This document shows positions 9,199-19,147 of a stretch of 26,349 nt of DNA, piece after piece. The position numbers were made by a program, and so were the translations under genes. A model generated the notes under the pieces. That model was not told the origin of the DNA, searched no databases, and saw only the letters and a program-made list of their open reading frames with translations. Origin of the DNA: an uncultured Lachnospiraceae bacterium (GTDB lineage: Bacteria; Bacillota; Clostridia; Oscillospirales; CAG-272); the NCBI GenBank assembly GCA_964609165.1, contig CAZSSE010000001.1:1-26349 (forward strand). The letters run 5' to 3'. The first letter of the stretch is position 1. Each line of letters starts with the position of its first letter.

Positions 9199-10095
9199 TT
9201 ATCCTTTATGAACATTACTTTGATACAATTCAACAATTCCTTTCAATACGTCCAAATGGGCAAAGTCCTTGTTGTAGGCAATATTCATTTCACGCATCAT
9301 ACTCAGATTTTCAATAGGAAGAATAGTCAGCTTTCCTTTCTTTGCCTCGCTGATGCAAGCGCTTCGGGGAAGAATAGATACGCCGAGCCCCTTTTTTACA
9401 AGCTCATTTATCGTAGAAACATTATCCACCTCCAAAGACACGTTAAAATTATCTATAGACTCGTTCATACTGATAAGTGTCGCTTCAAACAACTGTCTTG
9501 TTGCGGATGTGGGTAAACGCAGGATCATGTTTTGCTTTTTCAGATCATTTATCGTAACCAAAGAATGCTTTGCAATCGGATTATCGTTGCTCATTACGCA
9601 AACCAGATAGTCTGTATCCACCATAAAGTAATTCAGCTTGGCGGAGTGACGTTTTCCCTCCACGATGGCAATATCAAGCTCGTAATTCTCAAGCATATCA
9701 TAAAGATTATTTATGGTATCAGTAATTATCGTTATACTTACGTGCGAGTATTGGTTCACGTATTTTGCCAATATTTCCGAGATCATATTGTTCTCGGAGG
9801 TATGGGTAATACCGATACGAAATCTTGAAACGTGCTTTTGCTCATCAGCAATTTCGAATAGCATTTTTTCGTGCAGTGCTTTCAATCTTCTTGCGTATGT
9901 AACGGCAATTTCTCCTTCCGGCGTAAGTCTGAAATCCCCCTTGCCGCGCACAAAAATCTTTGCATTGCACTCTTTTTCAAGCTGACAGATATGGTTACTT
10001 ACGGCGGGCTGTGTCAGCGACAGGATCTTAGCTGCTTTCGTGAAATTCTTACAATCGGAGACCACAAGCAGTGTTTCAAGCTTTACATCTAACAT
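9199..10095 (-). CDS. LysR-family transcriptional regulator
   Basis: N-terminal HTH NFTKAAKILSLTQPAVSNHICQLE plus a PBP2 effector domain. RBS GAGGT; divergent from the antiporter/ATP synthase cluster. Confidence 0.95.
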   Translation of the reverse strand: MLDVKLETLLVVSDCKNFTKAAKILSLTQPAVSNHICQLEKECNAKIFVRGKGDFRLTPEGEIAVTYARRLKALHEKMLFEIADEQKHVSRFRIGITHTSENNMISEILAKYVNQYSHVSITIITDTINNLYDMLENYELDIAIVEGKRHSAKLNYFMVDTDYLVCVMSNDNPIAKHSLVTINDLKKQNMILRLPTSATRQLFEATLISMNESIDNFNVSLEVDNVSTINELVKKGLGVSILPRSACISEAKKGKLTILPIENLSMMREMNIAYNKDFAHLDVLKGIVELYQSNVHKG

Positions 10096-10147
10096 AGCAT
10101 ATACCTCTACTATAAAATAAATTTATCAATACCTAAAAAAATATAAG

Positions 10148-10176
10148 TTGACATTATAATATTTTTAGTATATCAT
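10148..10176 (+). promoter_or_regulatory. Putative sigmaA promoter of the antiporter-mgtC-atp cluster
   Basis: TTGACA (10148-10153), 17 bp, TATCAT (10171-10176). Confidence 0.55.
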
Positions 10177-10613
10177 ATAATAGATCAATTTGCAAGCGGA
10201 GAAGTGCATTTTGTGAAAAATATTTTGATGATATTTAAGCGATTTTTCATTAAGCCTTCTGACGGCAGGTTGCTTTTGAAAGAACGATAGCAGGACGACT
10301 TGTTTTGCACGGCTGTGATCGACGGCACCGTAAAGGGGCGCGGAAGAAAATGGTTGATTTTTTTGGATCTTGCTTTGTTTTTATCAGTACTGTTTTTACT
10401 CGTCAGGGATGATTATATAGAAGCGCACACGCTATCGTTTGGTACATATGCTTGCTGTTACGGTGGTCTGCGCTTTTTTATTTTGAAATTTGAAATCCGA
10501 CGATCTGAGTATCGGGACAGATGTGTATTATCGTAGGTTATGCGTCCTTATGCGTCTGCCCATTATTATTTACGAAAATACCGTAGCACTTGGCTACTAT
10601 GGAGGTATATGAA

Positions 10614-16387: not shown

Positions 16388-16403
16388 AAAGAAGGGATGA
16401 TAC

Positions 16404-17324
16404 GTGGCAGGGGCAAGTGAAATCAAAAGCAGAATTGCGGGCGTTCGTGAAACGAAGAAGATTACTGATGCCATGTATATGATTTCTTCTGCAAAAATGA
16501 GTAGAGCACTCCGAGGCTTGGAGGAAACTAAACCGTATTTTGAAGCTTTGGCTGAAAAAATCGGCGAAATAATTCATTATATGCCGCAAACCAAAAAACG
16601 CTATTTCAGCGTATCGGTGCCTGAAGAGCAGCCGCACCGCACACATGGTATCCTTTTAATTACGGCTGATAAGGGATTGGCAGGTGCTTACAATCAGGAA
16701 GCAATTCGTGTGTGCGAGGAATATATGACGCGGCATCCGCAGACAACGGTGTTTATCATCGGCGAATGTGGAAGACAGTATTTTCTGAATAAGAAGCTGC
16801 CGTTCGTTCGGGATTTCCAGTATTCGGCAGTGTATCCAAGCCTTACGGATGCGCGAAAGATCTGTTCTGAGCTGTTAGAATACTATAACGATGAAAGGCT
16901 CGATGAAATCAGTATTATTTATACGAATTATATCGGTGCGAAAGCGGGTTCAATTAAAAAAGTAACGTTACTTCCGCTTGAGCAGACAACATTCCATACG
17001 GGTAATTATTTTGCGGGGGACGCAAAAAAAGATTTTTTACCAAGCCCCGATGCGGTGCTTGAAGGAATTGTTCCGAGCTATCTGACGGGATTTATTTACG
17101 GTTGTCTTGTGGAGAGCTTTTGCAGTGAGCAGCAAGCACGCATGAAGGCAATGAAAAGCGCGGGCGATAATGCAGAGGATATGCTGAGAGTATTGCATAT
17201 GCAGTACAACAAGATACGGCAAGCATCAATAACGAACGAAATGATCGAAATAACGGCGGGCGTAAGAGCACTGAAACGACATTGCAGTCCTGCCGCAGGA
17301 GAAACGTGCCATGAAGACGAATGA
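16404..17324 (+). CDS. atpG: F1 gamma subunit
   Basis: EIKSRI...[31 protein letters not shown] and [12 protein letters not shown] motifs. GTG start. Confidence 0.95.
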
Positions 17325-18750
17325 ATTACAGAAAAATATAGGCAGGATCGTTCAGATAACCGGTCCGGTAGTTGATGTCAAATTCACAAAGGAAGCCTTA
17401 CCCAAAATAAAGGAAGAGCTTTACGTGATATGCAAGGGTGAGCGGCGTGCTATGGAGGTCGTTCAGCATATCGGCGGTTACACGGTCAGGTGCGTTATGC
17501 TCGGAGCAAGTGAGGGGCTTTGCAGAGATATGAAGGTTTATGCTACCGGAGCACCTATTTCGGTTCCTGTTGGCGAAGCCGTTTTGGGCAGAGTTCTTAA
17601 TGTTCTCGGAGAGCCTATTGATAACGGTGAAGCAATTTCAGAGAACTGCGAAAGAAAATCCATCTATCGTCCCGCACCGGATTATGCCGATCGCTCCGAG
17701 ACAGAGGAAATACTCGAAACAGGTATAAAGGTTATTGATCTTCTCGCCCCATATGGCAAAGGCGGAAAGATAGGTCTGTTTGGTGGTGCAGGTGTAGGAA
17801 AAACGGTACTGATTCAGGAGCTTATACACAATATTGCTACCGAGCACGGCGGCTATTCTGTATTTACGGGTGTCGGTGAGAGAAGCCGCGAAGGGAACGA
17901 TTTGTTTTATGAAATGGCGGAAAGCGGTGTGCTTAACAAAACCGCACTGGTTTTCGGTCAGATGAATGAAGCACCCGGCGTCAGAATGAGAGTAGCTCTT
18001 ACGGGGCTTACTATCGCAGAGCATTTTCGCGATGAATCAAAAAAGGATGTTCTTCTTTTTATTGATAATATATTTCGCTTTATTCAGGCAGGCAGCGAGG
18101 TGTCTACTTTGCTTGGTCGTATGCCGTCTGCTGTTGGCTATCAGCCAACTCTGTCACAGGAGCTCGGTGAGCTTGAGGAACGAATTGCCTCCACTAAAAA
18201 TGGATCGGTTACATCGGTGCAGGCAATATATGTACCGGCAGATGACTTGGCAGACCCTGCGCCTGCTACCACCTTTGCTCATTTAGACGCCACAACAGTG
18301 CTCAGCCGAAAAATTGCTGAGCTTGGTATATATCCGGCGGTAGATCCGCTTGAATCCTCATCCAGACTACTCGATCCGGAAATCATTGATAAAGAGCACT
18401 ACTACGTTGCGCGAACCGTTCAGGAAATTTTGGAGCATTACAATGAATTACAGGATATTATTGCCATTCTTGGTATGGATGAGTTAAGTGAAGAAGATAA
18501 AATTCTTGTTCGCCGCGCGCGGAAAATACAGCGTTTTTTATCACAGCCGTTCAGCGTTGCAGAAAAGTTTACGGGAGTCAAGGGCGTTTACGTGCCGCTT
18601 AGTGAAACCATTCGCAGCTTCAAGGCGATTATCGAGGGGGAAGCAGATGAATATCCCGAGAGTGCGTTTTTTAACGTCGGAACTATCGACGATGTAAAAG
18701 AAAAAGCAAGGCTGCTTTCGGAGGTGGACAATGAAGCCATTTCATCTTGA
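17311..18750 (+). CDS. atpD: F1 beta subunit
   Basis: [25 protein letters not shown] and DELSEED motifs. Confidence 0.97.
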
Positions 18751-19147
18751 AATTCTGACGCCAAAAAGGGTTTTTTATCGCGGTGAGTGTATCTCGCTTA
18801 TTGTTCCGATCACAGACGGAATGCTTGGCATTATGGCAGACCGCGCGCCGATCACGGCATCTCTTACAAAGGGCGAAGCCTATTATACACGACCTGATGG
18901 AGAAAAAATATTATTTTCTATTTCGGGCGGAATGATCGACGTAGAAAATAATACGGTCAAGGTACTGTGCGAATACGCCTTGCTGCCGGAGGAAATCGAC
19001 GAGGAACGTGAACGCAGAAAAATGGAGGACGCTTTGTCCGAGCTCAGAAAAGAGCAAAGTAAGCGAGATTATATGCTTTCACAGCTTACACTGTCCAATG
19101 CGATCAGTAATCTTAAGGTCAAGCAAAAGCGAAGCATAAACAGTTAA
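18731..19147 (+). CDS. atpC: F1 epsilon subunit
   Basis: FHLEILTP...[11 protein letters not shown]...SGGMIDV beta-sandwich plus a C-terminal helical hairpin. Confidence 0.93.

Follow-up and report, generated by a model that had tools for sequence, protein, structure and literature searches.

An accessory F-type ATPase of gut Clostridia with a truncated delta subunit fused to alpha, encoded next to a LysR-antiporter-MgtC cassette

We analyzed a 26,349-nucleotide stretch of DNA (the window) from contig CAZSSE010000001.1 of an uncultured Lachnospiraceae bacterium (assembly GCA_964609165.1; Oscillospirales, CAG-272 in GTDB) and found that its F1Fo ATP synthase operon encodes an alpha subunit that begins with delta's C-terminal domain. 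We call this protein deltaDeltaN-alpha, and we use "type ii" as our own label for the fused-type F-ATPase lineage. The enzyme represents a distinct, accessory F-ATPase lineage. The natural deltaDeltaN-alpha kind was noted in 2025, and our survey shows that it is spread widely among Clostridia of the gut. Taking all the evidence together, we consider it probable that the locus encodes an accessory type ii deltaDeltaN-alpha F-ATPase that would, by analogy with an engineered enzyme, carry more than one peripheral stalk, and that was recently joined to a cassette of LysR regulator, antiporter, and MgtC genes.

The window belongs to a metagenome-assembled genome (MAG) of 1.68 Mb that is 80% complete, and its genes were called from a listing of open reading frames (ORFs) together with Pfam and NCBIfam scans. 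The alpha ORF (14578 to 16356, + strand; 592 amino acids [aa]) starts with an ATG at 14578, which is preceded by GAGG and overlaps the 3' end of the gene for subunit b. Its first ~95 residues (to about 14850) form a delta C-terminal domain, which is followed by a short linker and a complete alpha with three Pfam domains. The match to the OSCP profile was limited to profile positions 88 to 171, the C-terminal half, and the delta N-terminal domain gave no match. In an exhaustive search, the N-terminal 110 residues of the fusion were aligned to residues ~90 to 165 of ordinary deltas of 167 to 180 aa. The original prediction had described an operon with neither atpI nor a free atpH. Neither gene was found within the atp operon, and no second OSCP match, hence no free full-length delta subunit, was found in the 80%-complete assembly. 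However, since the alpha ORF starts with the delta C-terminal domain, delta is truncated and fused rather than absent.

No internal in-frame start was found near the N terminus of alpha, so every alpha copy bears the delta domain. More than 100 homologs with 82 to 95% identity had the same length of 591 to 594 aa and the same four Pfam domains; a sequencing error does not account for the fusion. Among the relatives, the motifs GGF, YDWS, and GR of the delta domain were invariant, and the loss of the symmetry-breaking delta N-terminal domain was conserved throughout the type ii lineage. When the fused domain was modeled in a complex with two b C termini, the model scored 0.66 and the best of three controls scored 0.00; in the benchmark, the 0.66 mark was attained by 51 of 78 solved complexes and by 2 of 108 mismatched pairs.

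We then placed the enzyme among other F-ATPases. In a tree of concatenated a, gamma, alpha, and beta subunits, all 17 sampled type ii operons fell on one side of a 100/100 branch, and the other side held the operons with a free alpha together with the full-length delta-alpha fusions of Lachnospiraceae. Subunit a was 60 to 87% identical within type ii versus 22 to 28% identical to other F-types, and c, b, and gamma separated type ii from the other F-types in the same pattern. The alpha, beta, gamma, and epsilon subunits all passed the F-type equivalog cut-offs: alpha with 706 bits (TIGR00962), gamma (atpG, 16404 to 17324, + strand) with 239 bits against a cut-off of 194 (TIGR01146), beta (atpD, 17311 to 18750, + strand) with 789 bits against 463 (TIGR01039), and a full-length epsilon (atpC, 18731 to 19147, + strand) with 78.7 bits against 67 (TIGR01216). 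An N-ATPase was rejected by the gene order and by the scores of all alt_F1F0 models, which were below their cut-offs (alpha, 576 of 750 bits; beta [TIGR03305], 583 of 752; gamma, 72 of 282; c, 28 of 131). The original prediction of a distinct F-ATPase type other than the N-ATPase was thus borne out.

To define the distribution of the fusion, OSCP matches were surveyed across the order in 301 genomes with a completeness of at least 90%. Matches were found in 145 genomes: about 89 contained a free full-length delta, 6 contained a full-length delta-alpha fusion, and about 50 (~one sixth of the 301) contained the delta C-terminal domain alone, mostly fused to alpha. Within the window's genus (61 genomes sampled, 16 of them high-quality), type ii subunit a was present in 6 genomes, including 1 of the 16, and occurred in two divergent forms with 75 to 77% and 60 to 62% identity. 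An F-type beta above cut-off was found in 6 of 18 congeners, and most congeners contained only V/A-type subunits. The NCBI labels of the related MAGs were mutually inconsistent; a genome labeled Lachnospiraceae (L020) is identical with G360, a member of the window's genus.

A second rotary ATPase was looked for in the window genome, and V/A-type C, F, A, and B genes were found on two small contigs (C184 and C281). These genes rejected the possibility that the F-ATPase is the sole ATP synthase of the organism. A complete genome of another family (G022) contained both a fused-type operon and a canonical operon with a free delta and a 497-aa alpha, and G321, the genome holding locus L008, likewise contained both canonical F-type and fused-type operons. 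Since type ii is patchy in the genus and coexists with V/A-type or canonical F-type operons, the enzyme is accessory, as had been proposed.

Several other arrangements of delta and alpha were observed among the relatives. A full-length delta-alpha fusion of 670 to 714 aa was encoded in two Lachnospiraceae-labeled MAGs (L077, 9698 to 11725; L079, 9785 to 11815) and in six genomes of the order (G067, G207, G300, G259, G270, and G032); three complete deltas per F1 could not all be placed on the symmetry axis. Free-standing delta C-terminal domains of 72 to 91 aa were found between b and a normal 504-aa alpha in L098 (5461 to 5685) and, as short frames, in G139, G080, G175, G290, and G157, indicating that N-terminal truncation of delta also arises without fusion. 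Alpha ORFs of 737 to 787 aa were found in L096 (4425 to 6761), in L097 (5562 to 7829), and in about 15 genomes of the order. They consist of an unannotated N-terminal region of ~190 residues, a delta C-terminal domain, and alpha, adjoin a short 141-aa b subunit, and may represent a triple fusion of a b-like region, delta, and alpha. In the G208/G165 pair, taken in the order listed, a 681-aa frame contained two tandem delta C-terminal domains (G208:C17:38055-38537), and a 261-aa frame contained a complete delta with another C-terminal domain after it (G165:C94:24916-25644). Furthermore, gamma and beta shared one uninterrupted ORF of 786 to 794 aa in two MAG species (L068, 11813 to 14197, and L073). 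A covalent link between rotor and stator is hard to square with rotation. A genuine fusion with internal initiation, or an assembly error common to both MAGs, may account for this ORF.

The Fo genes of the window were also distinctive. Subunit a (atpB, 12834 to 13673, + strand; Pfam ATP-synt_A) carries an extra N-terminal hydrophobic stretch, and subunit b of the peripheral stalk is encoded by atpF (14070 to 14591, + strand; Pfam ATP-synt_B). The 125-aa c subunit (atpE, 13680 to 14057, + strand; Pfam ATP-synt_C over residues 58 to 121) has a signal-peptide-like N terminus and an acidic linker before the conserved hairpin, and this layout, with a length of 118 to 131 aa, is kept across type ii. 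The glycine motif in helix 1 of the type ii c subunit reads G-x-T-x-A-x-G-x-A, with bulkier residues in glycine positions.

The Na+ motif, as in the c-ring of I. tartaricus, consists of a Gln or Glu in helix 1 and E-S/T-T..Y in helix 2. The type ii c subunit has a Met where the Gln ligand would be and IET..Y in helix 2 (IETAIIY in the window), and the full Na+ motif was not found in the window c subunit. Since the Gln ligand for Na+ is missing, H+ coupling appears more likely than Na+ coupling for the type ii enzyme. In the order's canonical operons L092, L094, and L099, the full Na+-type motif was present, with Q/E in helix 1 and ETT/ETA..Y in helix 2, and epsilon was shortened to ~86 aa in L092 and L094. 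Because the canonical c subunits carry the Na+ motif, two F-types of one genome may use different ions. The window genome also contains an RnfD/E-family gene and Na+-decarboxylase beta genes, which are sources of small gradients.

It was reported that when delta residues 2 to 104 of the Bacillus PS3 enzyme were deleted and the remainder was fused to alpha, the engineered enzyme had as many as three b2 stalks, every one accompanied by an a subunit (Nat Commun 2025; PMC12229609). Its H+/ATP ratio was 5.8 versus 3.0, and ATP was synthesized at half the proton motive force (PMC12229609). By analogy, each F1 head of the window enzyme would have not one but three equivalent sites at which b2 stalks can dock, and two or three b2-a stators could assemble on a single c-ring as in the engineered enzyme. 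The extra stators would multiply the H+ translocated per ATP, and a fermenter could use the enzyme to synthesize ATP on its small ion gradients or, with a lower ceiling, to export more ions for each ATP. The fusion is what distinguishes the enzyme, and it points to a changed stoichiometry of the stators, not to inducible pumping on behalf of the antiporter.

The atp genes are the downstream part of a longer array, in which a LysR gene on the - strand, a broken small ORF, a CPA2 antiporter gene, and an mgtC gene precede atpB-E-F-A-G-D-C. The LysR-family regulator (9199 to 10095, - strand; Pfam HTH_1 and LysR_substrate) reached no NCBIfam equivalog and is divergent from the antiporter promoter. 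The hairpin terminator of lysR (9145 to 9184, - strand), with a 17-pair stem containing 9 GC pairs followed by a T-tract, also lies 3' of cdsA on the + strand and was the sole strong hairpin in the scan. A sigma-70-like promoter (TTGACA-17-TATCAT, 10148 to 10176, + strand) matches 11 of 12 consensus positions, and ~60 nt upstream of its -10 hexamer is a T-N11-A dyad (ATAAA-N5-TTTAT, 10112 to 10126, no strand assigned). In the sibling species L086, the promoter is conserved, the dyad is identical, and LysR is 93% identical. The dyad is a candidate LysR box, of a kind that carries little information in AT-rich DNA.

The small ORF is the remnant of a membrane-protein gene (10204 to 10612, + strand), which a stop codon and frameshifts have broken into three pieces in the window. 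L086 and G360 have intact versions of 147 aa and 152 aa, respectively. One extra T is present at 10222, within the remnant, in strains from two further metagenomes. A riboswitch in the long leader was rejected: an Rfam scan of 9900 to 13000 gave no match, and the leader is the decayed small ORF. The antiporter gene (10590 to 12071, + strand; Pfam Na_H_Exchanger, 8.8e-35) has its probable start at ATG 10614, and the protein scored below the cut-off of the CPA2 model TIGR00932. The MgtC/SapB-family membrane protein (12068 to 12778, + strand; Pfam MgtC, 4.5e-26) is a distant family member, with 38 bits against a cut-off of 255 for the Salmonella-type equivalog NF011912.

The mgtC gene overlaps the antiporter stop codon by ATGA. 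For atpB, the start at 12834, with GGAG 8 nt upstream, was favored over the alternative start at 12819 and leaves a gap of 55 bp after mgtC. No terminator-like site was found on the + strand from the antiporter through epsilon, including the mgtC-atpB gap, and no promoter-like site was found on the + strand between 10669 and 13627 in a consensus-based scan that misses non-canonical promoters. The originally described gene order, ATGA overlap, and terminator-free 55-bp gap were all present.

A metagenome contig from an independent study covers 9706 to 14126, from LysR to atpE, with about 98% identity, and a second contig matches 12561 to 13078 without any difference. Because the independent contig spans the LysR-to-atpE junctions and the sibling species has the same block, the junctions are not an assembly artifact. 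A tandemly repeated 10-nt unit, GTAAATAAGT, was observed at 16349 to 16387, where the repeat covers the stop codon of alpha and the spacer before gamma. Its copy number varies among strains, since contigs from other samples are one unit shorter.

To examine the synteny, we compared the window proteins by tblastn with 80 species loci that have the same operon type (alpha identity, 60 to 87%; most with 1.5 to 8 kb of upstream DNA). A CPA2 or MgtC gene adjoined atpB in none of the 80 loci, and a divergent LysR was found upstream of atpB once. The same linkage was found only in the sibling species (L086/L087), where the homology, with 88% nucleotide identity, is bounded exactly by positions 9191 and 19168 and the sequence on the left side is different. 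A mobile cassette was not supported, since no direct or inverted repeats were found at the ends of this block. Among the nearest upstream genes of type ii operons in 47 species, 68 Pfam families were represented without a recurring regulator or transporter, and NhaC, MgtE, and OAD-beta genes adjoined type ii operons elsewhere in individual instances. The claim that lysR-CPA2-mgtC-atpB is a conserved system therefore did not hold.

The closest comparisons show how the parts came together. In L088, whose alpha is 89% identical, a LysR with 27% identity to that of the window directly faces atpB, and the homology with the window starts at 12813, which is 6 nt upstream of 12819, the earlier of the two atpB ATGs. 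A conserved LysR partner was rejected, as the atp-adjacent LysRs of L088 and L067 are only 26 to 27% identical to the window LysR. In G360, the cassette of small ORF, CPA2 antiporter (77% identical), and MgtC (81% identical) lies behind a response regulator and a histidine kinase, and the fused-type atp operon is on a separate contig behind an FAD oxidoreductase gene. G360 was also the one genome among the 61 of the genus with a window-type MgtC ortholog (>80% identity). A core tandem MgtC pair, 30 to 36% identical to the window MgtC, was present in 53 of 60 congeners (e.g., G336:C28:324-1727). The window MgtC is distinct from this pair and was the sole MgtC found in the 80%-complete assembly. 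G353 has a type ii operon, but only the genus-core MgtC pair was found there.

Since the linkage is limited to the window and its sibling and the parts are split in G360, the cassette and the atp operon are distinct units, and their joining is a recent event within a single small clade. The LysR-antiporter-MgtC context thus amounts to a juxtaposition at the species level and not to a conserved system. In addition, a mobilizable element with a MobA/MobL relaxase, a ParM-like protein, a large serine recombinase, and TnpW was observed directly 3' of the atp operon in L088 (14666 to 21014).

The atp genes are likely cotranscribed with the antiporter and MgtC genes. Because the window has lost the upstream region of the relatives, and neither a promoter-like nor a terminator-like site was found in between, cotranscription is the simplest reading. 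A search for RNA-seq runs containing this DNA yielded DNA metagenomes only. In the proposed arrangement, the cassette (small membrane protein, CPA2, and MgtC) together with LysR would have replaced the atp promoter region of the relatives upstream of atpB, and the promoter at 10148 that LysR faces would drive the ATPase along with the antiporter and MgtC. Since that promoter region has been replaced, the atp genes are probably driven from 10148.

On the other hand, the fusion may merely replace the anchoring provided by the delta N-terminal domain in a conventional enzyme, in which one of the three fused domains holds b2, the ion ratio is ordinary, and the one a subunit supplied by Fo assembly leaves one domain occupied. 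We regard this single-stalk arrangement as possible but doubtful. Subunits a and b are each encoded once in the operon, without an obvious dosage signal, and the full-length fusions of L077 and L079 and the short delta of L098 show that fusion is tolerated in several forms. However, the symmetry-breaking domain has been lost lineage-wide, and the glycine motif of c has been replaced by bulkier residues. In the c-rings of alkaliphiles, bulkier residues in this motif tend to enlarge the ring, and a larger ring would give more room for a subunits. The engineered PS3 enzyme bears on both sides: many of its particles had one stalk only, yet its a and b contents were about doubled with no change beyond the deletion and fusion of delta (PMC12229609).

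An alternative closer to the original prediction is that the locus is a dedicated, LysR-induced module for ion or pH homeostasis, in which the ATPase hydrolyzes ATP to pump H+, the CPA2 antiporter draws on this gradient to move cations out or in, MgtC tunes the pump, and the genes are co-selected. The genes are co-oriented and tightly packed without a terminator-like site, the LysR-facing promoter and the T-N11-A dyad are kept in the sibling, and NhaC, MgtE, and OAD-beta genes neighbor type ii operons in isolated cases. Moreover, as described in PMC6658541 with reference to Lee, Pontes and Groisman (2013), Salmonella MgtC binds subunit a of F1Fo and blocks proton flow, for which Asn92 is needed. 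But the restriction of the linkage to two sibling species, the G360 cassette that follows a two-component system rather than LysR and lies on a different contig from atp, the G353 operon with the core MgtC pair, the unrelated LysRs of L088 and L067, and the low score of the window MgtC against the Salmonella equivalog make such a module unlikely. It is similarly improbable that the genes are adjacent without shared control, the atp operon having an unrecognized promoter of its own, located either in the 55-bp gap or near the end of mgtC (3'). Consensus scans overlook non-canonical promoters, and the many unrelated contexts of type ii operons suggest that these operons often bring or find a promoter. 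However, the 55-bp gap contains only a ribosome-binding site, the region preceding atpB in L088 is not retained in the window, and the scan of the + strand between 10669 and 13627 was negative.

Several points weigh against the multi-stalk, cotranscribed enzyme that we favor. The stalk number, the number of a subunits, and the ion ratio are inferred from an engineered enzyme of a thermophile, and to our knowledge no natural deltaDeltaN-alpha enzyme has been purified. No later literature on a natural enzyme of this kind was found in the collection searched. The score of the complex model may reflect memory of solved delta-b structures. The MAG has a completeness of 80%, so its unassembled part could contain a free delta gene or a canonical F operon. 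A tree of beta alone, whose backbone was unresolved, left type ii unresolved as well, which is why the concatenated tree was used. The ion specificity is read from a motif, cotranscription is deduced from sequence alone, and a weak promoter within mgtC could go unseen because the promoter scan is consensus-based.

The H+/ATP ratio is a basic bioenergetic constant and has been regarded as a function of c-ring size only. Operons of the type described here are common in gut and rumen Clostridia (~one sixth of the order's high-quality genomes sampled), where they are extra to V/A-type or Na+-type F-ATPases. They are natural targets for asking whether ATP synthases with several stalks occur, and whether fermenters can use them to exploit very small ion gradients. 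The interest of the antiporter-MgtC linkage is purely local, as a case in one species in which a partnership of MgtC and subunit a could be sought outside the enterobacteria. A bolder proposal, which we consider very unlikely, is that the locus acts as a gearbox: a natural F-ATPase with two or three stators would be made from one LysR-controlled transcript, MgtC acting on subunit a would set the number of conducting stators, and the CPA2 antiporter would exchange H+ for Na+ or K+. If true, ion-to-ATP coupling would be regulated in a fermenter that lives on gradients at the level of Rnf and decarboxylases.

Among known systems, the canonical F1Fo operon (atpIBEFHAGDC) shares with the window the order B-E-F-(H)A-G-D-C and the F-type equivalog scores. 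The window operon differs in having no atpI and no free atpH, a truncated and fused delta, a c subunit with a signal peptide, and a subunit a that is only 22 to 28% identical to those of canonical operons of the same order. Like the N-ATPase (atpDCQRBEFAG), the type ii enzyme accompanies another rotary enzyme as an accessory F-like ATPase, but the gene order differs and the window has neither atpQ nor atpR. With Salmonella MgtC, the window shares an MgtC-family membrane protein, which in the window is encoded directly upstream of the gene for subunit a; however, the window protein is a distant family member and the MgtC-atpB linkage is not conserved.

The closest counterpart is the engineered deltaDeltaN-alpha of PS3 (PDB 9jc1 chain I, 580 aa), which is collinear with residues 25 to 574 of the window protein. 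The junction is at the same place in both, with the delta C-terminal domain, a short linker, and the alpha N-terminal helix in succession. Unlike the PS3 construct, the window enzyme is natural, comes from a mesophilic anaerobe, and has a full-length epsilon and extended c and a subunits; and while the stalk number and ion ratio of the construct were measured, the window enzyme is known from its genes alone. Natural fusions lacking the delta N-terminal domain were noted, and their verification was called for, in the Discussion of the PS3 study, which named Acidaminococcus fermentans and two UniProt entries (PMC12229609). Compared by description, these (G4Q3K6 and A0A1I2C5T3) are also fusions of an N-terminally truncated delta to alpha. 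Acidaminococcus is, like the window organism, a fermenting anaerobe with Na+-pumping decarboxylases, but the organisms with the published natural fusions are Negativicutes, and that of the window belongs to a gut lineage of Clostridia. The breadth of about 50 of 301 genomes in one order was not reported in that study (PMC12229609). With respect to other stator arrangements, the window enzyme has a fusion whose partner is alpha, present in three copies, and a multi-stalk state is predicted for it. In mycobacteria, delta is fused to a stator partner as a b-delta fusion, and two or three peripheral stalks are the normal state of V/A-type ATPases.

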